DNA of 64,000 nucleotides, taken from an uncultured Niastella sp. GTDB lineage: Bacteria; Bacteroidota; Bacteroidia; Chitinophagales; Chitinophagaceae. The position numbers and the translations under genes were made by a program. A model generated the notes under the pieces. That model made no database searches, was not told the origin of the DNA, and was given only the letters and a program-made list of their open reading frames with translations. The DNA lies in NCBI GenBank assembly GCA_966211305.1, contig CBIHPC010000012.1:44-64043 (forward strand), read 5' to 3'. Below, piece after piece: positions 12,624 to 39,102 of the stretch; position 1 is the first letter of the stretch; each line of letters starts with the position of its first letter.

Positions 12624-15600
12624 TTGTTACGCGCACCTTACAGAAATCGAATAACACCAATTGTGTTAATAGTAGCTGCTTGCGTAGGTATGAGTTCTAC
12701 CGTAAAAGCCCAGGCTCCGGCGAAGGATTCCAGTAGTACGCAAAGCATTGACACATTGAAGTATCCCCTGCACGACAGGCGGGGCGATAAATTTACCTTT
12801 CCTCAACGAAATTCAATGGGTTTGAACGACCCGTCGAATATCCAGGACTCTATCGTTTATGATCCCAGGACAAAACAGTATTACATCATTGAACGAATAG
12901 GTAACTTTTACTATCGTAAACCTACCTATCTCACCTTTGACGAGTTTATGGCTATCCAGGCCCGTAAACAGGAATCCGAATATTTCAAAAAACGGTCAAA
13001 CATCCTGAGCGGACTAAACCGCAAAATGCTGCGGCCCAGGATGTCAATGAGCGATAACCTGTTCAACCGCATTTTCGGTAATGGTAAGATCGAGATAAAA
13101 CCGCAGGGGGAAGTGAATATCATTGCCGGTTACCAGGGTCAGAATATCAAAAACCCGGCATTACCTGAACGGGCCCGCCGCAATGGCGGTTTCGATTTTG
13201 ACATGAACGCCAACCTGAGCGTTATAGGTAATATCGGCGATAAGCTGAAACTGCCTATCAGCTATAACACACTCGCCAACTTCGATTTCGATAACCAGCT
13301 AAAGCTCGATTATACCGGTACCGATGATGAGATCATAAAAAAGATCGAGGCGGGGAACATTTCCTTCTCATCAAAGGGTACGCTGATACCCGGCGCCCAG
13401 AATATCTTCGGTATAAAAACCCAGCTCCAGTTCGGTAAACTGTTCATAACCGGTGTGCTGGCCAACCAGCGCTCGCAACGGCAGTCGCTGGGATTGCAGG
13501 GCGGTTCGGCCAATACCTATTTCGAGTTCAAGGCTAACGATTATGAGGAGAACCGTCACTTCCTGCTGGCCCAGTATTTCAGGCTGAACTATAACAAGGC
13601 CATGTCGAAACTGCCGGTGGTTACCTCCCAGGTGCAGATCCTGCGTATGGAAGTTTGGGTTACCAACCGCAACGGCTCCACTACCGAAACCAGGGATGTG
13701 GTGGGATTGATGGACCTTGGCGAGCCTGACCCGTTTTATTCACCGCAGCCGGGCGGTGCAGGACAACTGCCGCACAACGATGCGAACGATCTGTACCGCC
13801 GCATCATCAACGACCCCGACAGCCGCAAGCCTTCTTTCATCACCAGCAAATTATCATCGTTAGGGTTGCGCCCGGTGCAGGACTTCGAAAAAACATTCGC
13901 CCGCAAGCTGAACCCAACTGATTTCTTCTATAACCCGCAGATCGGTTTTCTTTCTATCAATCAACCACTGCAGCCCGATGAGGTTTTAGGGGTGGCCTAT
14001 CAATACAGCTATAACGGCAGAATATACCAGGTGGGTGAATTTTCACAGGATGTGCCGCCCGATACTACCAATACAACCGCGGGCACACAAAAAGTACTGT
14101 TCCTGAAATTGCTGAAAGCCACATCCCAACGTACCAACCTGCCGCTGTGGGACCTGATGATGAAGAACGTGTACACCCTCAAAACAAAAGACGGTAGTTA
14201 CCTCTCCGGCGTACAACCCGCAGATTTCAAGTTGAACGTTTTGTATGAAGAACCGAGTTTAGGCCAGAAGCGCTTTTTGCCCGAAGGCGACAAACCCGGT
14301 GTTCCGCTGATAACGCTAATGAACCTCGACCGGTTGAATGCCCGGAACGATCCTTTACCCGATGGGGTATTCGACTTTCTGGAAGGATTTACCATACAAT
14401 CGCAACAGGCCCGCATCATCTTCCCCACCCTGGAACCATTCGGTCGCGATCTGGAAGCGGTGGCATTTGCCGGCAGTACGCCCGACATAAAGCAGAAGTA
14501 CATCTACTACCCGCTATACGACACCATTAAAGAAATTGCCAAAACCTACGCCAACCTCGACCGGTATGTTATCAGCGGTTATGCCAAAGGACAAAGCACA
14601 TCCGAAATTTCACTGGGCGCCTTCAACGTGCCCCAGGGCTCGGTTAGTGTAACGGCCGGCGGACAGGTTCTTTTAGAAAACCAGGATTACATAGTGGATT
14701 ACAACCTGGGTACGGTTAAGATCATTAACCAGGCCATTCTTAACGCAGGCTTACCCGTTAACGTGCAGTTTGAGAACAATGCCGGCTATGGAATGCAACA
14801 GCGAAACTTCATGGGTTTACGGCTCGACTATATGGCCAAACAAACCGCCCGCGAGCAATTGACGATCGGGGCCTCGCTGGTACGGCTGGGTGAACGCCCC
14901 TTCTTTACAAAAACAAGCTATAATGAAGACCCCATCCGCAACACCATGTACGGGGTCGACTTCAATTACATGACCCAGGCGCCCCGCATTACGCGCTGGT
15001 TAGATAAGCTCCCCTTTTATCATACCACCGAAATGAGTACCATTACGGCTTATGGTGAAGCGGCTTACCTGAAACCGGGCCACCCGCCGCAGATCGGCAA
15101 AGGCAGCGGCAGCCAGGTGTTCATCGATGATTTTGAAGGCTCGCGCAATGCCATCGACCTCCGCTTTCCGCTGGTTAGCTGGGGACTGGCTTCAACACCC
15201 GCCGGCAACGGGCTGTTCCCCGAAGCAACCATGCGCGACACGCTCGATTATGGCTTCAACCGCGCCAAACTGGCATGGTATAATATTGAGCCGGTGTTGC
15301 AGGACAGATCAAGTGCCGACAACCCCATTAACGATAATTTGCTGAACGACCCACGCGTTCGTTCAATAAACGTAAAAGACATCTTCCCGCAACGCACACC
15401 CGACCTCGGTCAGGGAAGCCTGGTAACTTTCGATATGGCTTACTACCCTACCGAAAGAGGTCCATATAACTACGATGCGCGGCCGGGAAGTATCGACCCT
15501 AACGGCCGGTTATTAAACCCTAAAACCCGTTGGGGCGGTATCATGCGCGGTATTGACCAGGTTGATTTTGAAACCGGTAATGTGGAGTTCATCGAGTTCT

Positions 15601-18600
15601 GGTTACAGGACCCATACATCCTGAACCCCGGCAGCAGCGGTGGCGAACTGTATTTCAACCTCGGTAATATTTCAGAAGACGTGCTGAAAGACGGCAAACG
15701 CTTTTTTGAGAACGGCATCAGCGGTGCAGTGACCACCGCCCTCGAAGATAATAACACCAATTGGGGAAAGGCCCCTGCCAACCCCATTCAGGTTACGCAG
15801 GCCTTCAGTAACGAACCTGCCGACAGGCCTTTACAGGATGCCGGTTTCGACGGTTTGGTGAACGATGCCGAGCAAACAAAATTCCAGGCATACCTGAACC
15901 AGCTGCAAAGCATTGGCTCCGGCGCCTATCAACAGGCCTTACAGGACCCTTCAAGCGATGACTACATCAACTACCGTAATGCACAGTTCGGTGCAAACGA
16001 TGGGATCCTTGCCCGTTACAAAAACATCAACAACCCGCAGGGCAACTCACCCGTTGCCAGCAGCAGCGATAAATTCGTAAGCGCCTTTACACTGTATCCC
16101 GACCAGGAAGAGTTCAACCGCGATAATACACTCAATGAACTGGAGGAATATTTTCAGTACCGGGTTGACCTGAAAAAACCCAATATGCGAGTGGGCACCA
16201 ACTTCATTACCGATAGTATTGAAGTGCGCCCCAGCGGAAGCCCGGCAGAAACCTGGTACCTGTTCCGCATCCCTATCAGGGAGTTTCAGCAAAAAGTAGG
16301 TAATATCCCCGACTTCAAGTCGATCCGTTTCATTCGTATGTACATGACCGGCTTCGAAGATTCAGTGGTGTTGCGTTTCGCCAAACTCGAGCTGGTGCGT
16401 AACCAATGGCGTCAGTTCAACTACCTGCTCGACACAGCCAATCAGTACAAACCCATTCCTGCCAACACTACCACTACGGTAAAACAGTTGGCGGTGAACG
16501 TGGAAGAAAATGCATCACGCTATCCTGTTAACTATAGAACGCCCCCCGGCGTTATTCGTCAGCAACAACTGAGCAACAACAACGTGAACCTGTTGCAGAA
16601 CGAACAATCGCTGAGCCTGCAGGTGTGTAACCTGGCACAGGGCGATGCAAGAGGGGTGTTCAAAACAATAAACCTCGACCTGCGTCAGTACAAACAATTA
16701 CAAATGTATGTGCACGCCGAGTCGGTAAAAAGCTCAACTGATATAAAGAATGGCGACCTGTACACCGTAGTGCGTATCGGTAACGACCTTATCAGCAACT
16801 TCTATGAGATAAAGATCCCGCTCGAAATTACGCCATGGGGAACAACCGACGATGAGCTGATATGGCCAACAAACAACCTGCTCGATCTGTCGCTCGAAAG
16901 GCTGACCGCCCTGAAAGTATCGCGCAACAACAACGGCAACACCTATCAGTATTACCAGGAAACCGACGGCGATGGTAAACAGTTCTCCATATTGGGTAAC
17001 CCCAACCTTGGCGAAGTGCGTACCTTCTTCATAGGTGTACAAAACGTTAACCGGGTTGATGCCTGTACCGAAGTATGGTTCAACGAGCTTCGTTTATCTG
17101 GTCTCGATGAACAGGGCGCCTGGGCAGCAACCGGCCGCCTGGACATAAAACTGGCCGACCTCGGTACCCTGTATGTTTCCGCTAGCGCCCGCAGCACCGG
17201 CTGGGGTACATTGGAACAACGGGTAAACGAACGCTCACGCGAAGCCTTTACCCAGCTGGATGTAGCAGCCAACCTCGAGCTGGGTAAACTGTTACCCGCC
17301 AAAGCAGGGGTCTCCATCCCGGTTTACGCCAGCTATTCCAAAACAGTTACAACCCCCGAATACGATCCATACGATCTGGATATAAAACTGAAAGACAAAC
17401 TCAAGGCCGCATCAGGTGCCGACAAGGATTCAATCCGTAACGATGCCATCGATGTAAAGACCATCAAAACCGTCAACTTCACCAATGTGAAGAAGCTGAA
17501 TACGACCGGTAAAAAACAGCAGCTCTGGAGCATCGAGAACTGGGACCTGAGCTACTCCTATTACAAAGAAGAACAGCACAACCCGCTGATCGAAAGCAAT
17601 GAAGTAGTGCGTCATCGCGCAGGCCTCGGTTATAATTATACATCCAATCCCAAATACTGGGAACCTGCCAAACGAATTATAAAATCAAGGTCGCCCTGGG
17701 TAGCGGCCGTAAAGGATTTCAACATCAACCCCATGCCTACGTTACTTGGGTTCAGGGCCGATGTGAACCGCCAGTTCGGTACCTACCGCCCACGCAGCGT
17801 TGGTACGCCAAAGAACCTGATACCCGAAACGTACGATAAATACTTTACGTTCGACCGCACCTATAACCTGCGCTGGGATTTCACCCGTTCGCTGAACCTC
17901 GACTTCACCGCGCTGAACCGCGCCTGGGTTGATGAGGACAGCGGCCGTTTGGGCGAAGCCGAGAAAAAACGCATGTGGCATAACTTCTGGAAAGGCGGCC
18001 GTACCATTCAGTACAATCACAAGGCAACGGTTTCATATACCCTGCCAACAAGCAAACTGCCGTTCCTCGACTGGACAACCGTTAGGGCAGGTTATACCGC
18101 TAACTTCGACTGGTTAGCCGCTTCATTACTTGCCCGCGAACTGGGTAACACGCTGTCGAATGCACAACAAAAGAACGTGACCGCCGAATTAGACTTTACC
18201 CGGTTGTACGCCAAATCGAGATTGCTGCGGGCCTTTGAAGAAGAAGCAGCGCCTGCACCGCAGGGCCCCCTGCCGCCCGGCGCAGGCCCAAAAACCGATT
18301 CTACCGGAAAGAAAAAGAAGCGCGACAAAAACGCGCCGCTTGAATTAGGCAGCGGCGTAAAATTCGCCGGCCGTTTACTCACCATGTTGAAACGGGTGAA
18401 TGTGCAATATTCTGAAAACGCCAGCGCTACCATATACGGTTATACCGATAGCACACGCATTCTGGGAATGAACTTTAAATCGATGGCGCCCGGTCTTGGA
18501 TTTATCTTCGGCCGCCAGCCCGATACCAACTTCGTGAACATGATGGCAAGCAAAGGCTGGCTCACCGCCGATTCGAATTTCAACTACCAGAACCGGCAGG

Positions 18601-19781
18601 ATTATCAGCAGCGGCTGAACATAACAGCCACGCTGAACCCGGTACGCGACCTTACCATTGACCTTACGTTCGATAAAACGTTTGGTAAAATGTACAGCGA
18701 ACTGTATAAAGACACTACCGGCACCGGAATGCATTTTGCCCGGCTGAACCCGTATACATCGGGCAGCTTTAGCGTAAGTTATATTGCATTGAAGACAATG
18801 TTTACGCCGGTAAGGCCGAACGAGGTAACAAGCACCTTCCTGAAATTCCAGGATTACCGGATGATCTTATCAAAACGGCTGGCAGAGCAAAACCCATACT
18901 GGCAAAAGCTCGATCCTAACCAGCAGTTCACTACCGATGGTTATTATACCGGGTATGGTCGTTACGCACAGGATGTATTGATCCCGGCGTTCGTTGCGGC
19001 ATACACCGGCAAAGACCCATCAGGAGTATCGCTTATAAAAAGGGATAACCCGAATATCCGCTCCAATCCGTTCTCGGGCATTTTGCCGCGCCCCAACTGG
19101 CGATTGACCTATAATGGATTGACCCGCATAAAAGGCATGGAAAAAGTATTTACCAACTTTACCATTTCGCATGGCTATACAGGTACGTTAAGCATGAACA
19201 GCTTTAGCTCGGCACTGTTGTACCGCGATTCGGCAAATCTCGGTTTTCCTTCGTTCATCGATACGCTTACCGGCGCCTTTATCCCCTACTTCCTGGTACC
19301 CAACATTTCAATAAGCGAACAGTTTGTACCGTTGATCGATGTGGATATGCAGTTCACCAACCAGCTTACAGCGCGTTTTGAATATAAAAAATCAAGAACG
19401 GTAAGTTTGAGTTTGATCGACTTCCAGCTCAGCGAAAACCGGTCAACAGAGTTCACCATCGGCGCCGGGTTCAGGAAGCGCGGTGCGTTCTCATGGATCA
19501 AGATCAAGGGCAAGCCAATGCAAAATGACGCCAGCTTCCGGTTAGACCTTGGCTTCCGCGACGACATTACCGCCAACAGCCGCTTAGACCAGGACCAGGC
19601 ACTTCCTACGAACGGTCAAAAGGTGATCACCATAAACCCAACGATCGATTATGTGATCAGTAACCGGGTAAACCTGAAATTCTATTTTGAACAGCGAAGA
19701 GTAGAACCGAAGATCTCCACCTCACCGCCCATCACTACAACAAGGGCCGGTATACAGATCAGGATCTCACTGGCGCAATAA
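12624..19781 (+). CDS. sprA: T9SS translocon / gliding-motility protein SprA (Sov)
   Basis: 2385 aa, the size typical of the family. It has a signal peptide (IVLIVAACVGMSSTVKAQA) and a beta-barrel-type sequence throughout. The start codon is TTG at 12624; there is no in-frame upstream ATG. Confidence 0.85.
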   Translation: MLRAPYRNRITPIVLIVAACVGMSSTVKAQAPAKDSSSTQSIDTLKYPLHDRRGDKFTFPQRNSMGLNDPSNIQDSIVYDPRTKQYYIIERIGNFYYRKPTYLTFDEFMAIQARKQESEYFKKRSNILSGLNRKMLRPRMSMSDNLFNRIFGNGKIEIKPQGEVNIIAGYQGQNIKNPALPERARRNGGFDFDMNANLSVIGNIGDKLKLPISYNTLANFDFDNQLKLDYTGTDDEIIKKIEAGNISFSSKGTLIPGAQNIFGIKTQLQFGKLFITGVLANQRSQRQSLGLQGGSANTYFEFKANDYEENRHFLLAQYFRLNYNKAMSKLPVVTSQVQILRMEVWVTNRNGSTTETRDVVGLMDLGEPDPFYSPQPGGAGQLPHNDANDLYRRIINDPDSRKPSFITSKLSSLGLRPVQDFEKTFARKLNPTDFFYNPQIGFLSINQPLQPDEVLGVAYQYSYNGRIYQVGEFSQDVPPDTTNTTAGTQKVLFLKLLKATSQRTNLPLWDLMMKNVYTLKTKDGSYLSGVQPADFKLNVLYEEPSLGQKRFLPEGDKPGVPLITLMNLDRLNARNDPLPDGVFDFLEGFTIQSQQARIIFPTLEPFGRDLEAVAFAGSTPDIKQKYIYYPLYDTIKEIAKTYANLDRYVISGYAKGQSTSEISLGAFNVPQGSVSVTAGGQVLLENQDYIVDYNLGTVKIINQAILNAGLPVNVQFENNAGYGMQQRNFMGLRLDYMAKQTAREQLTIGASLVRLGERPFFTKTSYNEDPIRNTMYGVDFNYMTQAPRITRWLDKLPFYHTTEMSTITAYGEAAYLKPGHPPQIGKGSGSQVFIDDFEGSRNAIDLRFPLVSWGLASTPAGNGLFPEATMRDTLDYGFNRAKLAWYNIEPVLQDRSSADNPINDNLLNDPRVRSINVKDIFPQRTPDLGQGSLVTFDMAYYPTERGPYNYDARPGSIDPNGRLLNPKTRWGGIMRGIDQVDFETGNVEFIEFWLQDPYILNPGSSGGELYFNLGNISEDVLKDGKRFFENGISGAVTTALEDNNTNWGKAPANPIQVTQAFSNEPADRPLQDAGFDGLVNDAEQTKFQAYLNQLQSIGSGAYQQALQDPSSDDYINYRNAQFGANDGILARYKNINNPQGNSPVASSSDKFVSAFTLYPDQEEFNRDNTLNELEEYFQYRVDLKKPNMRVGTNFITDSIEVRPSGSPAETWYLFRIPIREFQQKVGNIPDFKSIRFIRMYMTGFEDSVVLRFAKLELVRNQWRQFNYLLDTANQYKPIPANTTTTVKQLAVNVEENASRYPVNYRTPPGVIRQQQLSNNNVNLLQNEQSLSLQVCNLAQGDARGVFKTINLDLRQYKQLQMYVHAESVKSSTDIKNGDLYTVVRIGNDLISNFYEIKIPLEITPWGTTDDELIWPTNNLLDLSLERLTALKVSRNNNGNTYQYYQETDGDGKQFSILGNPNLGEVRTFFIGVQNVNRVDACTEVWFNELRLSGLDEQGAWAATGRLDIKLADLGTLYVSASARSTGWGTLEQRVNERSREAFTQLDVAANLELGKLLPAKAGVSIPVYASYSKTVTTPEYDPYDLDIKLKDKLKAASGADKDSIRNDAIDVKTIKTVNFTNVKKLNTTGKKQQLWSIENWDLSYSYYKEEQHNPLIESNEVVRHRAGLGYNYTSNPKYWEPAKRIIKSRSPWVAAVKDFNINPMPTLLGFRADVNRQFGTYRPRSVGTPKNLIPETYDKYFTFDRTYNLRWDFTRSLNLDFTALNRAWVDEDSGRLGEAEKKRMWHNFWKGGRTIQYNHKATVSYTLPTSKLPFLDWTTVRAGYTANFDWLAASLLARELGNTLSNAQQKNVTAELDFTRLYAKSRLLRAFEEEAAPAPQGPLPPGAGPKTDSTGKKKKRDKNAPLELGSGVKFAGRLLTMLKRVNVQYSENASATIYGYTDSTRILGMNFKSMAPGLGFIFGRQPDTNFVNMMASKGWLTADSNFNYQNRQDYQQRLNITATLNPVRDLTIDLTFDKTFGKMYSELYKDTTGTGMHFARLNPYTSGSFSVSYIALKTMFTPVRPNEVTSTFLKFQDYRMILSKRLAEQNPYWQKLDPNQQFTTDGYYTGYGRYAQDVLIPAFVAAYTGKDPSGVSLIKRDNPNIRSNPFSGILPRPNWRLTYNGLTRIKGMEKVFTNFTISHGYTGTLSMNSFSSALLYRDSANLGFPSFIDTLTGAFIPYFLVPNISISEQFVPLIDVDMQFTNQLTARFEYKKSRTVSLSLIDFQLSENRSTEFTIGAGFRKRGAFSWIKIKGKPMQNDASFRLDLGFRDDITANSRLDQDQALPTNGQKVITINPTIDYVISNRVNLKFYFEQRRVEPKISTSPPITTTRAGIQIRISLAQ

Positions 19782-33908: not shown

Positions 33909-34568
33909 TTAATCAATGAGCTTATTGCGCATGCCATACATAATAAGGCCGGCGATGGTTTTGGCGCCCACTTTCGATTTCATATTCTGGCGAATGGTTT
34001 CAATGGTGCGGGGGCTAAGGAAAACTTCTTTTGAAATCTCCTCGGTTGTTTTATCGGCTGCCAGCAGTTTGAGTATGCGAATTTCTTTTTCGGAGAATTT
34101 TACGGGATTGGGATAGAACTGCCGTACCTGTTTTTTGGTTTGCAGTTTGGAAAGAACAGCTTTATTAACAAGATCATTAAAGTAAAAATCATCATTCATG
34201 CAGGTAAGTATAGCCTGATAGATCTCTTCAGGGTCAGAGGTTTTGGTGAGGTATGCATTGGCACCCATTTCCATCATCCGGGTGATCATTTCCTGTTCGT
34301 CGTACATGGTAAGAACCACTATCTTCACGTCACTGTATTCCTTACGCAGGATACCAATAGCGTTCACCCCATCTACTTCGGGCATGCGAATATCCATCAA
34401 CAAAACATCAGGTTTTTTGATCTGCATCTTGTGCATCAGATCTTTACCATCTTCGGCTTCCCAAAGGATCTTCAGGTATTCTTTTCCTTTCAGAGCCATT
34501 TTAATGCCGTCGCGAAATATCTTATGATCGTCGGCAAGTGCTACTTTAATAACCAGTTCAGTGCTCAT
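33909..34568 (-). CDS. NarL/LuxR-family response regulator (RR1, no adjacent kinase)
   Basis: REC domain (LADDHKIF, phospho-acceptor context DVLLMDIRMP) plus a C-terminal LuxR HTH (SEKEIRILKLLAADKTTEEISKEVFLSPRTIETIR). Confidence 0.9.
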   Translation of the reverse strand: MSTELVIKVALADDHKIFRDGIKMALKGKEYLKILWEAEDGKDLMHKMQIKKPDVLLMDIRMPEVDGVNAIGILRKEYSDVKIVVLTMYDEQEMITRMMEMGANAYLTKTSDPEEIYQAILTCMNDDFYFNDLVNKAVLSKLQTKKQVRQFYPNPVKFSEKEIRILKLLAADKTTEEISKEVFLSPRTIETIRQNMKSKVGAKTIAGLIMYGMRNKLID

Positions 34569-35165
34569 AATGGGTAAGGTTGGCTTATTAATGGGTTATA
34601 AGTTGTTCCTTTTCAGATACAATATGCCCTACCGTTTTAACCCCTTAATCAGTGCTTATCGCTTCAGGGGCCCTAACCTTCAGGCAATATCGTATAAAAA
34701 AACGATTTCACTCACATTGTAAACGTTAGTTTACCAGGATCAATCGAAATAGTACCAGATATCATACGACGCTTTTACGTATTTGCCGGTAAAATCCGAA
34801 TTTTTAAAAAAGAGCATTTCCGCTATTGCGAACTGGCAGGTGGCCTGCTATTTTTGTTTCAGAAGTTGATTGATGAGGACGACAACCTTAAAACATCCAA
34901 TATTCTGATTACCGTCCTAAAAAATAATTTCCAACGATCTTATGAATGCCACCTGTCAAATCCAATATCAGTCAACTTCTTTTTTTAATCACACCATGTT
35001 CTAACGACACCTATCCTACAACACGAATCATACCTTTTAAAAACATAGTTTTATTGATCCCTGTTTTGATCAGTAGTATATGCAATCAGTCAACCGGTAA
35101 ATAAGAAAAGGAAATTTTAATTGCAAGAGATGCTACACACTGCGCCCCGTTTTTAAAATCCGACA

Positions 35166-35200
35166 CTACTTAAGCATTAATCCTGCGCTACTTAAGCATT
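35166..35200. promoter_or_regulatory. 13-bp perfect direct repeat CTACTTAAGCATT x2 with 22-bp phasing; candidate response-regulator site
   Basis: The copies lie at 35166-35178 and 35188-35200, about 270 nt upstream of the 128-aa ORF. The TACTTAA core resembles a NarL-type TACYYMT heptamer. Confidence 0.35.
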
Positions 35201-35467
35201 TTCACTTATCCACATTTGTGAACAATTGTGTCTCAAATGTAGGTTTCACGAACTTTCACAATAGTAAATATACGGTAAATTACGAGAAATTTTCCCCCAT
35301 TTTGAATCGTAATATTTCCTAGTAAATTCCCCCGAAACGTAGACCAGTAGGCCATTCCGGGCAAAATTACACCATTTATGCCTGCTCGCAACCCGTTGTA
35401 TATCTTTTTTTTTGGAGGTTTCTTACTCTCCGGAACCACTATTAACAACCTCTAAAAACTTACTACT

Positions 35468-35854
35468 ATGATGCAAACTGAACTCTTCACTAAACGTAAC
35501 ATTGCTACCATTGGTGAAGAAATTACCCATGAATTAGGCGCTGAACTGGTTAACAATTACCGCCAGGCTCATCCGAATGATGTTAAGGCTTACATTGTTG
35601 GAAAAGAGATCCTGAGCCAGATCCTGGCCCAACCCGGTTGTGCAGGCATCCAGTTCTTCAATGCTATCAATGAATTCGGACAAAAGACGCTGGTTTACGT
35701 TGGCCTCGATCAAAATGGCAAACAACTGGTTAATTACTCAGTAGTTACCACTGACGCCCAAATTCAAACTGAAAAAGGCATTGTTGCTGATAGAAGCATC
35801 CCCTCTGGCGATGATCCATATTTCGGAGATGACGGCTGGTTTATTATTGATTAA
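35468..35854 (+). CDS. Hypothetical cytoplasmic protein (128 aa), first gene of the signalling cluster
   Basis: A clean ORF with no signal peptide or TM helix and an acidic C-terminus (GDDPYFGDDGWFIID). I recognise no family. Confidence 0.6.
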   Translation: MMQTELFTKRNIATIGEEITHELGAELVNNYRQAHPNDVKAYIVGKEILSQILAQPGCAGIQFFNAINEFGQKTLVYVGLDQNGKQLVNYSVVTTDAQIQTEKGIVADRSIPSGDDPYFGDDGWFIID

Positions 35855-35869
35855 ATAAACCTGAATCTC

Positions 35870-35877
35870 TATATTTG
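35870..35877 (+). promoter_or_regulatory. Perfect TAnnTTTG box (TATATTTG) overlapping the putative TTG start of the 7-TM gene
   Basis: Seen directly. If functional, it conflicts with the TTG start at 35875, so either the box or the start call is wrong. Confidence 0.25.
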
Positions 35878-36576
35878 AGGGTAAATGACCCTGATATAGA
35901 GAGCTTTTTCTTACATATCAGTATATATTCTTCGTTATTACCCGTAATTCTCTTTCTTGTGTTTTTAAGGCACACAAAAAGAAAGGAATTATGGGTAATC
36001 TTTATATACTCCTGTTACTCATTTTTGAATGACAAGGTTTTCCTATCCTCAAAACTCAATGCCAAGTTTTTCCTAAGCACTTATACGCTGGTAGAATTCA
36101 TCCTCTTCAGTTATTTCATTTGGCTCATAATTGACAACAGGCAATTTAAAAAGGTGATTGCCATTGTCTCAACATTGTTTGTTATATTTATCTGCTATTA
36201 TTTTCTTACAACCAAATGGAACTTTTTCGATTCAGTACCAGTGGCTTGTGAATCGATCCTGATTTTTACATTTTCGCTATACTATCTGTTTGAGCAAATA
36301 AACAAGCCCAGGGTGCTATTTATATATAACACGTCTATGTTCTGGATAATCCTTGGTTTCCTCGTGTATTTAGCGGGGTGTTTTTTTATATATACCTTCG
36401 CAGACGAGATAGACCGGAACGACCGGACCAAATTCTGGTTTGTGACTTTCATTTTCAATACCATTAAAAACATTTTCTTTAGCATAGCTTTTTCGCGGAA
36501 AGAAGCTAAGGATAAAAGTATATCCAGCCTATCCTCATACGATAATTATTTTAAAACCCCATTTAACCCATTATAA
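35875..36576 (+). CDS. Uncharacterised 7-TM membrane protein (7TM-A)
   Basis: 233 aa with seven hydrophobic segments by eye. An intramembrane Glu sits in TM5 (ACESILIF...EQINK), and TM6 carries FWIILGFLVY. The gene is very A+T-rich. The start (TTG) is uncertain. Confidence 0.6.
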   Translation: MRVNDPDIESFFLHISIYSSLLPVILFLVFLRHTKRKELWVIFIYSCYSFLNDKVFLSSKLNAKFFLSTYTLVEFILFSYFIWLIIDNRQFKKVIAIVSTLFVIFICYYFLTTKWNFFDSVPVACESILIFTFSLYYLFEQINKPRVLFIYNTSMFWIILGFLVYLAGCFFIYTFADEIDRNDRTKFWFVTFIFNTIKNIFFSIAFSRKEAKDKSISSLSSYDNYFKTPFNPL

Positions 36577-36596
36577 ATCTGGTTTTTCATATATCA

Positions 36597-37442
36597 ATGA
36601 TCTTGCTGCAGGTCAATCATGGCTCCAGTCAGTTCCCTATGGTACTTTATTTCGGTACTATTGGTATGCTTGTTCTTACCATTGGCCTCATCGTTTTCAT
36701 TATTTTTCACCAGCGTAAGGTTATCCGCTATCAAATGCAGTTACAGCATATGGAGCAGGAACAACAAAAGATGTTGCTCAATGCCTCCATTCGCCTGCAG
36801 GAAGAAGAGCGGCAGCGCATTGCCGCCGACCTGCACGATGATGCCGGCCCCCTGCTGGCTACGGCGCGTTTATACCTGAACGAAAACCTGGTGAACCTCG
36901 ACAAAACAACTCAACTGCAGAGTATCTACAATGCCAAACAGATCATTGACGACACCATTCAGCTTATTCGCAATATTTCGCATAGCCTGATGCCCCCTAC
37001 CCTTAAAAATTTCGGGTTGGAGTCAGCCGTAAACGATCTGTTCCAGAAGATCAGCGGTTCGGGCAGTATGAACGCCAGCTGCCGCTTTCACGATTACCGC
37101 GAACGCCTGCACGCAGATCAGGAACTCATCATTTTCAGGGTAATACAGGAACTGGTGAATAACATTCTGAAACATAGTAATGCCAGTTTTATTCATCTTA
37201 CTCAAAACCTGAGCGGTAATAAATTGTATATTCGCCTCCATCACGACGGCCGCGGTATTACCCAGGCCGATTTTGATAAACTGAATAAAAGCAATGTGGG
37301 ACTGGGTTTGAAAAATATTCAAAGCAGGTTGAAACTCCTGCACGGGCGCATTTATTTTGAAAAAGATATTTCACAAACGTATTATAAGGTTACTATCGAA
37401 ATTCCAAGAGTAGAGGAAGAACCGGTAGCACCACAGATATAA
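36597..37442 (+). CDS. HisKA_3-type sensor histidine kinase with a single N-terminal TM helix and no extracytoplasmic or cytoplasmic sensor domain
   Basis: 281 aa. TM helix (VLYFGTIGMLVLTIGLIVFIIF), H-box RIAADLHDDAGP, N-box ELVNNILKHS, G-box GLGLKNIQSRL. Confidence 0.9.
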   Translation: MILLQVNHGSSQFPMVLYFGTIGMLVLTIGLIVFIIFHQRKVIRYQMQLQHMEQEQQKMLLNASIRLQEEERQRIAADLHDDAGPLLATARLYLNENLVNLDKTTQLQSIYNAKQIIDDTIQLIRNISHSLMPPTLKNFGLESAVNDLFQKISGSGSMNASCRFHDYRERLHADQELIIFRVIQELVNNILKHSNASFIHLTQNLSGNKLYIRLHHDGRGITQADFDKLNKSNVGLGLKNIQSRLKLLHGRIYFEKDISQTYYKVTIEIPRVEEEPVAPQI

Positions 37443-37564
37443 AATAATTGGTTCATATTTTGATAAGGGCTGCTAACGTAAATTAGTGGGGCGGATAAGT
37501 GTTTACACTGACGTATGGATGCAACACCCCCTGAATGCCTAAACACTGTAGATTTTTAGTAATT

Positions 37565-37572
37565 TAGTTTTG
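37565..37572 (+). promoter_or_regulatory. -7 promoter box TAGTTTTG; possible internal promoter for RR2
   Basis: A perfect TAnnTTTG lies 17 nt upstream of the ATG at 37589, inside the 146-nt kinase-RR2 gap. No -33 TTG is present. Confidence 0.35.
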
Positions 37573-37588
37573 CCAATATCATAAACAG

Positions 37589-38245
37589 ATGGGACCTATA
37601 AAAGTGGCTATTGCTGATGACCACAAAATATTCCGTAAAGGAGTAATATTGTCGTTAAGGCCTTATACAAACATAAAATTCGTACTCGAAGCTGAAAACG
37701 GTCAGGAACTGTTGGATAACCTACCAACCGCACCTGAACAACCGGATGTTATTTTAATGGATTTACGTATGCCTTTAAAAGATGGCATCGAAACCACTAA
37801 AGTTATCGCCCGCCAGTATCCAAACATCCATGTAATTGCACTGACCATGTATGAAGATGAACGGTTCGTGAGCCACATGATGGAAATAGGCGCCAACGGG
37901 TATTTACTAAAAAGCGCTGACCCCTCCGAGATAAAGAAAGCCATAATGGAGGTAATGAGCAAGGGGTATTATCTGAACAACTTTGTAAACAGGATTCTGC
38001 TAAAAAAGTCACACGCCCGGGTTAAAGTGGTACCCAGTTTAAACAACGAAATTACCCTTAGCGACCGTGAACGCGATGTGATAAAATATATTTGCATGGA
38101 GTTTACCGCCCATGAAATTGCACAAAAACTGGAAGTTAGCCCACGGACTGTTGAAGCTATCAAAGACAGGTTGATGGAACGCTTTGGTGCTAAAAACACG
38201 GCTGGCCTGGTTTTCTTTGCAGTTAAGAATAACCTGATTGATTAA
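37589..38245 (+). CDS. NarL/LuxR-family response regulator (RR2)
   Basis: REC domain (IADDHKIF, DVILMDLRMP) plus LuxR HTH (SDRERDVIKYICMEFTAHEIAQKLEVSPRTVEAIK). It is a paralog of RR1, and both end in N-x-LID. Confidence 0.9.
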   Translation: MGPIKVAIADDHKIFRKGVILSLRPYTNIKFVLEAENGQELLDNLPTAPEQPDVILMDLRMPLKDGIETTKVIARQYPNIHVIALTMYEDERFVSHMMEIGANGYLLKSADPSEIKKAIMEVMSKGYYLNNFVNRILLKKSHARVKVVPSLNNEITLSDRERDVIKYICMEFTAHEIAQKLEVSPRTVEAIKDRLMERFGAKNTAGLVFFAVKNNLID

Positions 38246-38385
38246 ACTCCCGGCAACCCTTAACAGGGATGTAATGTAATTTGTAAAACGAATAACAGCC
38301 GGCATTATGTTGATACCCTTTTTTCCAGCGTTAAAAACACCTGCCCCCCCTATGAAGAACCGGTTTGGCCCTGAACCCTTTGACC

Positions 38386-39102
38386 ATGGTAAAAACCGGT
38401 GGAAGTATATTTATTGCCCTGCCGCTGGTAGTAATGCTGTTATCGTTACTACCCGTGTATATTCTCTTTGTTCGTAAAGTAGCCATCACCGCCATACTTA
38501 ACGTACTCAGGGCAGTTTGTCTTTTTGTCTTTCTGCAATATCTCACGCTTTATTTTATACAGCCCGGTTTTCCTGCAATGCAAACCGCCTTCAGGCTGGC
38601 TGAATTCACACTGGTATTCTATCTTTTTAAATTGATGATGGCCGGCAGCCAGGCGAAGGACCTTATGAACATGATGCTGGTATCGTTCCTGTCTGTTGTA
38701 ATTACCATTTTTTCCCTGAAAGGCATAACGGCTTACCCGGGCATTATAATCATTATCGAAGCTTCAGTGATTACCGTTCTTGCTTTCGTTGTATTACTTC
38801 AACTCATCAGTAACAAACAAACAGCCATGCCCAATGAGCCCGGTTTCTGGATTGCCGGCGGCATGTTATGTTACTTTGGGATGGTAGTGTTTATGGAAGC
38901 TATAGCAGGCAGTCAACTGGAATTGTCGCAACAGATACAACAGGAAAAAGGTTTTATAGTAACAGTTGCCGATATTCTTCGAATGGTGTTCTTTATAGTG
39001 GCTGCATCCATTGCAGGCAAAAACAAAAAGGACATTAATAGTCATGAAGAGCCACCGCTTCCGCCCCTGCCGCCGCGCCCGCCATTTAAAATAAAGTATT
39101 AG
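38386..39102 (+). CDS. Uncharacterised 7-TM membrane protein (7TM-B) with a proline-rich tail
   Basis: I preferred the ATG at 38386 over the TTG at 38365. There are seven hydrophobic segments. TM5 has a Glu (IIIIEASVI...LQLISNK) and TM6 has FWIAGGMLCY, mirroring 7TM-A. The C-terminus is EEPPLPPLPPRPP. Confidence 0.6.
   Translation: MVKTGGSIFIALPLVVMLLSLLPVYILFVRKVAITAILNVLRAVCLFVFLQYLTLYFIQPGFPAMQTAFRLAEFTLVFYLFKLMMAGSQAKDLMNMMLVSFLSVVITIFSLKGITAYPGIIIIIEASVITVLAFVVLLQLISNKQTAMPNEPGFWIAGGMLCYFGMVVFMEAIAGSQLELSQQIQQEKGFIVTVADILRMVFFIVAASIAGKNKKDINSHEEPPLPPLPPRPPFKIKY

Follow-up and report, generated by a model that had tools for sequence, protein, structure and literature searches.

The 64,000-nucleotide (nt) stretch of DNA analysed here (the window; contig CBIHPC010000012.1 of assembly GCA_966211305.1, positions 44 to 64,043) comes from an uncultured Niastella sp. 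of the Chitinophagaceae. At 33909-39102 it contains a cluster of six genes in which a histidine kinase with a single transmembrane (TM) segment lies between two stand-alone membrane proteins of seven TM helices (7-TM) and is accompanied by two NarL-type response regulators (RR1 and RR2). A preliminary description had proposed that these genes form a split sensor system. The six-gene layout which it gave was confirmed, all six open reading frames (ORFs) being recovered on the same strands and at the same coordinates, as follows (aa, amino acids).

33909-34568, minus strand: RR1, a NarL/LuxR-type response regulator, divergent from the rest of the module (Pfam Response_reg and GerE)
35468-35854, plus strand: gene for a 128-aa cytoplasmic protein of an orphan family (ORF and ortholog alignments)
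35875-36576, plus strand: 7TM-A, a stand-alone seven-helix membrane protein (AlphaFold2 model; start codon uncertain)
36597-37442, plus strand: the kinase, 281 aa, with one TM segment, HisKA_3 and HATPase_c (Pfam, TM scan)
37589-38245, plus strand: RR2, a NarL/LuxR-type regulator in the kinase operon (Pfam Response_reg and GerE)
38365-39102, plus strand: 7TM-B, a trailing paralog of 7TM-A, with a likely ATG start at 38386 (hhalign)

Pfam recognizes HisKA_3 (29.6 bits, cut-off 24) and HATPase_c (E 2.6e-10) in the kinase and no other domain, and the H, N, G1 and G2 boxes are readable directly in its sequence. A hydropathy scan places the single TM segment at about residues 19-37. From the N-terminus, the protein consists of a variable tail of about 15 residues, a glycine-rich TM helix (GTxGMLxLxxGLxxFII), a helical linker, HisKA_3 and HATPase_c. 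Column identity in an alignment of 22 orthologs is 0.41 in the N-terminal tail, 0.80 in the TM helix, 0.82 in the linker, 0.94 in the dimerization and histidine phosphotransfer (DHp) part and 0.83 in the catalytic and ATP-binding part, and the conserved TM helix carries small-residue motifs. Because Pfam finds only HisKA_3 and HATPase_c, and because the N-terminal tail is short and variable, the kinase has no sensor domain; the earlier claim to this effect stands, as neither Pfam nor the alignment of the 22 orthologs revealed a hidden one. The catalytic part has only sub-threshold matches in NCBIfam (MctS, UhpB, LiaS and NarQ), and the nearest solved structures to the kinase are DesK (E 7.9e-7) and VraS.

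Identity between RR1 and RR2 is 38% (E 1e-62), and each protein terminates in N-x-L-I-D, which bears out the paralogy and the shared terminus that had been noted for them. The phospho-acceptor aspartate can be read from both sequences (LMDIRMP and LMDLRMP). With HisKA_3 and HATPase_c in the kinase, and a receiver and GerE in each regulator, these proteins have the composition of a HisKA_3/NarL-type two-component system.

The seven-helix family and its place beside the kinase

The two membrane proteins had been described as paralogs belonging to one uncharacterised family. By BLASTP, 7TM-A and 7TM-B are 22% identical over 161 aa (E 7e-6), and profile-profile comparison with hhalign gives a probability of 96.5% (E 7e-10) over 194 columns; both the pairwise and the profile comparison thus identify the two as true paralogs. 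Among the motifs that they were said to share, F-W-I-x2-G-x-L-x-Y and VT...FF-x2-A-x-S are present in both, but Q-[IL]-x-N-K is matched only approximately, as QINK in one protein and QLISNK in the other. An AlphaFold2 model of 7TM-A shows seven helices (predicted local distance difference test score, pLDDT, 85; predicted template-modelling score 0.82) with very short periplasmic loops, and the positive-inside rule predicts that the N-terminus is outside and the C-terminus inside. The family is marked by the motifs FTxxEY in TM3, FDSxPxxxE at the start of TM5, EQ...P...FIY...FWIxxGxLxYLxGxFF in TM5-TM6 and IKNIxF in TM7, and by the conserved membrane-embedded charged residues E74, E126 and K198. 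When the family is defined by a length of about 200-245 aa, seven helices, these motifs and a position upstream of a one-TM HisKA_3 kinase, 7TM-A has every feature; 7TM-B has the profile match and the FWI..G motif of TM6, trails RR2 and is missing several family motifs.

A profile search of the full library found 5235 representative clusters of this family at 50% identity, 1552 of them at E <=1e-10, and the best 150 of the 5235 representatives are all stand-alone proteins of 149-267 aa. In their sources, family members are named 'hypothetical protein'. There are 115 homologs of 7TM-B, the best being that of Niastella populi (94% identity). A truncated homolog of 7TM-A (P0013, from Chitinophagaceae bacterium OAS944) carries the public name 'FlaA1/EpsC-like NDP-sugar epimerase', which is probably a mis-annotation as no domain match supports it. 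Searches of Pfam with both window proteins and 46 members of the family, of NCBIfam and PADLOC with the window proteins, and of PDB sequences with the family profile gave no significant match. With the model of 7TM-A, Foldseek returned only G-protein-coupled receptors from the PDB (E at least 0.027, TM-scores 0.36-0.57), which we read as a generic seven-helix resemblance without homology. The description of the family as uncharacterised is therefore upheld, no known enzyme or transporter family having been matched in any of these searches.

Linkage of the family to one-TM kinases was suspected from the window and was measured in contigs encoding family members, in 20 loci found by scanning a single genome for each species and in 80 soil-metagenome loci, the latter fetched using a different sub-clade of the 7-TM family. 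It proved to be essentially invariant. In all 23 of the loci L001-L023 a 7-TM gene is followed by a homolog of the one-TM kinase (260-285 aa) and then by a NarL-type regulator, and the same order is found in L024, in L025, where the 7-TM protein is a distant homolog (E 2.6e-6), and in one contig seen as a gene table only. On the soil contigs this order was present in 71 of the 71 non-trailing cases with enough downstream sequence; the 18 exceptions were trailing copies after the regulator, in the position of 7TM-B, or tandem 7-TM arrays (L084, L104), and a further 25 copies were too near a contig end to judge. The spacers between the 7-TM and kinase genes are typically 15-70 nt, or the ORFs as called overlap. 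Distant triads, comprising L021-L023 (a Kordia genome and two Bacteroidota or Chitinophagaceae metagenome-assembled genomes) and L025, likewise combine a multi-TM protein with a one-TM kinase; the partner is a full-length protein of six or seven TM helices in L021, L023 and L025 and only a 122-aa ORF in L022.

In the loci mapped, an RR2-type regulator always comes after the kinase, and 7TM-B comes after RR2 only in Niastella-like and Pseudoflavitalea-like loci. The two-receptor module of the preliminary description therefore stands in one half only: the pairing of 7TM-A with the kinase is conserved, whereas 7TM-B is lineage-specific and a dual receptor is not a defining feature. Besides 7TM-A, the kinase and RR2, the conserved unit includes the divergent RR1, a predicted leader RNA (described below) and the 128-aa protein. 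Among the genome-scan loci in which 7TM-A is followed by the kinase and the regulator, a number are without the 128-aa gene. In many genomes the whole module, from the divergent RR1-type regulator and the RNA through the 7-TM and kinase genes to the RR2-type regulator, is present a second time in tandem; as an RR1-type regulator is divergent in these duplicates also, RR1 belongs to the module. Second modules are found upstream of RR1 in L008 (300-3700), L012 (2036-4103), L017 (940-4480), L018 (1-4045), L042, L047 and others. The window has no second module in this position, which is occupied instead by metallophosphoesterase-like and deacetylase-like ORFs. In L084 (2-2019) and L104 (2432-4034), two or three tandem stand-alone 7-TM paralogs without a kinase of their own are situated beside the module.

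Gene order, together with the evolutionary pattern described in the next section, suggests with a little better than even probability that the stand-alone 7TM-A is the input for a sensor-less one-TM kinase. In such an arrangement, 7TM-A would be the input subunit of an intramembrane complex formed with the single conserved glycine-rich TM helix of the kinase. The continuity of this helix into the DHp domain would allow the state of 7TM-A to set the balance between kinase and phosphatase activities, and control by 7TM-A could be activating, or inhibiting as that by LiaF. The kinase would act on RR2 and probably also on the divergent paralog, RR1. A second input of the same family may be provided, in some lineages, by 7TM-B, while the separately promoted leader RNA of about 125 nt would belong to the same module.

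It is also conceivable, although in our view unlikely, that the one-TM kinase itself senses membrane thickness, fluidity or charge, as DesK does, with the 7-TM proteins serving as co-expressed effectors or targets, for example a transporter or a membrane-remodelling enzyme. Of the solved structures, that of DesK is closest to the kinase, and DesK senses through TM segments of its own; in the kinase, the TM segment leads directly into the DHp domain with no domain between. Second kinase-regulator pairs of the same one-TM type occur without an adjacent 7-TM gene in L004 and L008, and hence a dedicated 7-TM neighbour is not obligatory. The membrane-embedded E74, E126 and K198 would also suit a transporter or an enzyme. 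Given DesK and these 7-TM-less pairs, the earlier statement that the kinase cannot sense on its own was too strong. Other observations also weigh against 7TM-A as the input: the TM helix of the kinase is near-invariant while 7TM-A is variable, so that co-variation between residues offers nothing in its favour; no tie between the 7-TM family and known sensor domains was detected, with one marginal match to 7TMR-DISM_7TM (E 0.0039) among 46 members; and conservation in 7TM-A is weakly skewed to the cytoplasmic half (0.58 versus 0.52, p = 0.035). Self-sensing, however, does not account well for a fixed order and tight 7-TM/kinase spacing in approximately 100 loci, including very distant triads, as such a fixed order is typical of the subunits of a complex (liaF-liaS) and not of regulated targets. 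The two genes would also share a promoter, since a conserved promoter box, TATATTTG, lies directly upstream of 7TM-A and makes it probable that 7TM-A and the kinase are co-transcribed, and a transporter or enzyme role finds no family match. We therefore retain 7TM-A as the favoured source of input to the kinase.

Joint exchange of the 128-aa tail and 7TM-A

Across genera, identity to the window proteins is 75-98% for the kinase, 82-99% for RR1 and 75-99% for RR2, values which equal or exceed those for the flanking CoA-transferases (70-94%). In the same genomes, identity is 30-40% for 7TM-A, 50-60% for the 128-aa protein and 29-65% for 7TM-B. Clusters at 90% identity have 258 members for the kinase, 858 for RR1 and 207 for RR2 versus 3 for 7TM-B. 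Kinases that are at least 96% identical can be accompanied by 7TM-A proteins with only 33-41% identity.

The 128-aa protein has a conserved core (ILAQPGCxGIxFYNAxNExGxKTLVYVG ... GIVADR in the ortholog alignments) and a hypervariable tail at about residues 110-128 (window 35795-35851), which is acidic, rich in glycine and serine and ends in a tryptophan-rich segment. Among orthologs, the tails after GIVADR are 11-26 residues long and rich in aspartate, glycine, serine and proline; tryptophan, which accounts for 9% of their residues, was found in 54 of the 56 tails examined and appears in terminal motifs such as WFIID, WGWIID, WWEND and WKWLFGW. The protein has no match in Pfam, NCBIfam, the PDB or PADLOC and neither a signal peptide nor a TM helix, and its single-sequence AlphaFold2 model (pLDDT 45) was unusable.

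Comparisons between closely related loci indicate that this tail and 7TM-A are replaced together. Between L001 and L002, DNA identity is about 100% from RR2 onwards, 90-93% in the kinase and 88-98% in the leader and RR1, and drops to about 50% over the last third of the 128-aa gene and the whole of 7TM-A, to its final base (L001 3280-4180). Each of these two allele types recurs in a second, independent assembly (L029, L061), and the 7TM-A of L002 is nearer to that of a locus with an 85%-identical kinase than to that of L001. A similar mosaic is formed by L083 and L089, which are identical (100%) as far as approximately codon 90 in the 128-aa gene and 97-100% identical from the start of the kinase, with 66-83% identity over the 128-aa tail and all of 7TM-A (L083 470-1300). 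Synonymous divergence (dS) between L083 and L089 is 1.34 in 7TM-A versus 0.09 in the kinase, and the ratio of nonsynonymous to synonymous divergence (dN/dS) in the cassette is 0.12. The breakpoints of the cassette fall inside the 128-aa gene and at the boundary between 7TM-A and the kinase. When the window is compared with two Niastella relatives, the kinase and both regulators have a dN/dS of 0.01, and the values are higher for 7TM-A (0.05-0.07), the 128-aa gene (about 0.1) and 7TM-B (0.13); all module genes are under purifying selection, with values of 0.004-0.13 across comparisons. Gene-wide positive selection on 7TM-A was considered and rejected, dN/dS being 0.05-0.12. As judged from the contrast in dS, the low dN/dS of the cassette and the mosaic breakpoints, the cassette alleles are old, kept by purifying selection and moved by homologous recombination, which is anchored in the kinase gene and in that part of the 128-aa gene which encodes the conserved core.

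The joint replacement of the 128-aa tail and 7TM-A is the best evidence that they are a matched pair. We would propose that the cytoplasmic 128-aa protein is an allele-matched partner of 7TM-A and that its tail and 7TM-A are exchanged as one specificity cassette. An effector of a self-sensing kinase would not be expected to be swapped together with the tail of a cytoplasmic protein. Co-variation of tail and 7TM-A beyond that due to their shared history was also sought, and was weak (Spearman correlations 0.3-0.4).

The same pattern may suggest a peptide pheromone. The tryptophan tail of the 128-aa protein would be cleaved, possibly modified, and exported, with 7TM-A as its cognate receptor or as its processor or exporter, and the allele groups would be incompatible with each other. 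The replaced segment is exactly the 128-aa tail and 7TM-A between conserved flanks; the alleles are old (dS 1.34 versus 0.09) and under purifying selection, as expected for maintained specificity types; and the hypervariable tails have a near-universal tryptophan close to the C-terminus. We take this tryptophan to recall that of ComX, and the class of kinase and regulator to be that of ComP and ComA. However, the conserved core of about 110 residues looks folded and has no signal peptide or TM helix, unlike short pheromone precursors, and the locus is without a ComQ-like prenyltransferase, an AgrB-like peptidase or an ABC exporter. The 128-aa gene is, moreover, missing from many loci with 7TM-A, the kinase and the regulator. 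A pheromone in this strict form seems very improbable to us.

Old alleles which recombine between near-identical flanks are also seen at receptor and immunity loci. 7TM-A could be an inner-membrane receptor for a phage or bacteriocin, or an immunity protein, which the two-component system regulates or monitors, and the extra or tandem 7-TM copies in L084 and L104 and as 7TM-B would be in keeping with such an arms race. Nevertheless, the 7-TM proteins, the 128-aa protein and the kinase of the window match no defence-system model in PADLOC, the locus is chromosomal and syntenic with mobile or toxin genes not found nearby, and the periplasmic loops are very short, while the joint swap of a cytoplasmic tail would be left unexplained. 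We consider this explanation to be just as doubtful as the pheromone.

A broader possibility, still improbable but marginally less so than these two, is that the module is a self/non-self or specificity-group system of a type new to Bacteroidota, in which the tryptophan tail and the 7-TM protein are a matched ligand-receptor or adaptor-receptor pair gating a kinase, two regulators and a small RNA. If so, it would be a functional analogue of ComX-ComP and AgrD-AgrC built from unrelated parts. For the favoured role of 7TM-A as a separate input subunit, the combination of a conserved core with a recombining input cassette would offer a testable case in which specificity diversifies while the downstream wiring is fixed.

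Relation to known systems

Most known examples of sensor-less kinases relying on a borrowed membrane partner come from Firmicutes (LiaFSR and the Bce systems). LiaFSR/VraTSR of the Firmicutes has the same order of accessory membrane protein, HisKA_3 kinase and NarL-type regulator, and its kinase is likewise held in the membrane by a minimal anchor and relies on the accessory protein, as is proposed here for 7TM-A. The LiaS model of NCBIfam matches the catalytic part of the kinase below its cut-off (E 2.6e-20), and the VraS structure also matches. LiaF and VraT, however, come from a different, unrelated family without the 7-TM architecture; the accessory proteins of the two systems have only the gene order in common, and the window module lies outside LiaFSR. 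LiaS has two TM segments and a HAMP domain, whereas the window kinase has one TM segment and no HAMP, and the window module has in addition a second regulator, a leader RNA, the 128-aa partner and a recombining cassette. BceRS-BceAB resembles the module in having a kinase without an extracytoplasmic domain, the signal being thought to come from a separate membrane partner, but in that system a kinase of the HisKA/OmpR type, with two TM segments, has an ABC transporter as its partner, and no such transporter is encoded at the window locus or at related loci. Intramembrane-sensing kinases such as LiaS and BceS are defined by two TM segments and an extracellular loop of less than about 25 residues. 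The likeness to them drawn in the preliminary description thus holds for the missing extracytoplasmic domain and fails for the membrane architecture, there being one TM segment here.

DesK, the membrane thermosensor of Bacillus subtilis, is also a HisKA_3 kinase in which a TM signal passes straight into the DHp helix, but it has its own sensor of four or five TM segments and no separate 7-TM protein. ComQXPA and Agr share with the module a hypervariable cassette between conserved flanks and deep alleles that recombine, as in the L001/L002 and L083/L089 mosaics, and ComP and ComA are also of the HisKA_3 and NarL classes. In these systems, by contrast, the sensor is the N-terminal part of the kinase and not a separate protein. 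The locus encodes no short peptide precursor with a ComQ-like or AgrB-like enzyme, and the candidate in their place is the folded-looking 128-aa protein. 7TMR-DISM is a further bacterial seven-helix membrane module associated with histidine-kinase output; it differs in having an extracellular DISMED domain and a fused output, whereas the proteins described here are stand-alone, all of the best 150 listed being shorter than 270 aa. No window protein matches PF07695 (7TMR-DISM_7TM), and the single marginal match noted above does not place the family within it.

The closest analogues are LiaFSR/VraTSR for the logic of the operon, DesK for the solved kinase and comQXP/agr for the population pattern. 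As the defining features of the families compared are absent, we file the module as a new variant of the accessory-protein-dependent kinases; no published description of it was found in the literature. If 7TM-A is indeed the input, the module would represent a structurally different solution in Bacteroidota, with a separate seven-helix receptor from a large unannotated family (5235 clusters), and would give a function to thousands of 'hypothetical' membrane proteins.

Predicted leader RNA, other candidate regulatory sequences and genomic setting

Further features of the locus, all on the plus strand, are as follows.

34824-34856: Bacteroidetes-type promoter of the leader RNA, with a -33-like TATTG/TCTTG, about 20 nt and a -7 box TATTTTTG at 34849-34856
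34862-34990: structured RNA-like element of about 125 nt, a candidate small RNA or 5' leader (cross-genus conservation, covariance model)
35140-35280: further conserved leader blocks CCCCGTTTTTAAAATCC, TTATCCACA..TGTGAATA and TAGTAAAtATAC (alignment across several genera)
35157-35200: tandem 22-nt direct repeat AATCCGACACTACTTAAGCATT / AATCCTGCGCTACTTAAGCATT (repeat search)
35866-35902: perfect 9-nt inverted repeat TCTCTATAT/ATATAGAGA, bracketing TATATTTG and overlapping the first codons of 7TM-A
35870-35877: internal promoter box TATATTTG before 7TM-A (conserved spacer position)
37565-37580: -7-like box TAGTTTTG followed by CCAATATC, 9 nt before the ATG of RR2

The 0.9-kb leader between RR1 and the 128-aa gene had been called non-coding, but it is not empty, as a conserved RNA-like element occupies 34862-34990. 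Its promoter matches TAnnTTTG at 34849, and both promoter boxes are kept in 13 aligned loci from several genera. Searches with nhmmer and cmsearch found 58 copies of the element, one per module. All are on the plus strand, and they precede either the operon or a second module. Every copy has a closing stem of 11-15 bp (AAGUUGAUUGAY with RUCARUCAACUU), and a run of U follows the element. The interior contains invariant unpaired boxes (CAUCCAAUGUCC, ACCGUCC, UUUCCAA and AAAUCCAAU); among the unpaired boxes, three or four are of the UCCAAU type. The stem is paired in 99.8% of cells; one pair shows a compensatory CG/UA change in 17 sequences, and three pairs vary by G-U wobble only. These compensatory and wobble-only changes point to selection at the RNA level on the plus strand, where U-G and G-U pairs are frequent that would be C-A mismatches on the opposite strand. 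The minimum free energy z-score is -3.2. Some copies have inserted hairpins, and a small optional hairpin after the 5' arm is present in approximately 31 of 54 copies (RAGG-N7-8-CCUY, with GGAU/AUCC and GUGGU/ACCAC variants). No match was found in Rfam. An overlapping 44-aa ORF was considered as the product of the element and was ruled out by indels of 1-2 nt among orthologs. Taken together, these data support the prediction of a structured RNA with its own promoter at 34862-34990, which would be a candidate regulatory RNA in a phylum with few characterised examples. Prediction of RNA targets with duplexfold at all gene starts in the window gave nothing informative. The sequence CCAATATC occurs only twice in the 64-kb window, at 34962-34969 within the leader RNA and at 37573-37580, 9 nt before the start of RR2; its presence in the same sense at both sites suggests, by analogy and as speculation, a shared binding factor with the RNA acting as a Gac/Rsm-like sponge.

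The conserved blocks at 35140-35280 are candidate operator, promoter or 5' untranslated region elements of the 128-aa gene, or candidate regulator-binding sites. Of 75 distinct spacers, 73 carry a perfect TATATTTG at 15-50 nt beyond the stop codon of the 128-aa gene. Its reading frame differs from spacer to spacer; the sequence is therefore conserved as DNA and is interpreted as a promoter box. Inverted repeats surround it in the window, L083 and L001. The presumed TTG start of 7TM-A overlaps this box, and in 25 of 59 classifiable 7TM-A orthologs the conserved first helix begins upstream of any ATG, GTG or TTG. The start of 7TM-A is uncertain and may be non-canonical, for example ATA; for 7TM-B, the ATG at 38386 is the more likely start. 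The internal promoter box which had been reported in front of RR2 was found at 37565 as TAGTTTTG. Of the 52 distinct spacers between kinase and RR2, 17 contain this box without a mismatch and 25 contain CCAATAT at the same position; the sequence in front of RR2 in the window is CCAAUAUC. A scan for sigma-70 promoters and terminators performed no better than on shuffled sequence. A match to Hammerhead_3 inside 7TM-B (E 0.7, 21 bits against a gathering threshold of 48.5) was dismissed as chance.

The cluster had been described as A+T-rich, and this is correct: G+C is 0.35-0.37 over 35750-36750 versus 0.44-0.51 in the flanks. A horizontally acquired A+T-rich island was considered and rejected. 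Synteny of the locus extends across the Chitinophagaceae, and the neighbouring CoA-transferases are no better conserved than its kinase and regulators; hence the low G+C content is not a marker of an island. The same neighbours, encoding CoA-transferase, DUF4296, DUF4835 and Dfp, are present in all Chitinophagaceae loci, and no mobile or toxin genes were found near the locus, which is chromosomal. The module is vertically inherited in the Chitinophagaceae and has simpler relatives elsewhere in Bacteroidota. Outside the locus, the window contains an ORF of 2385 aa at 12624-19781 on the plus strand.

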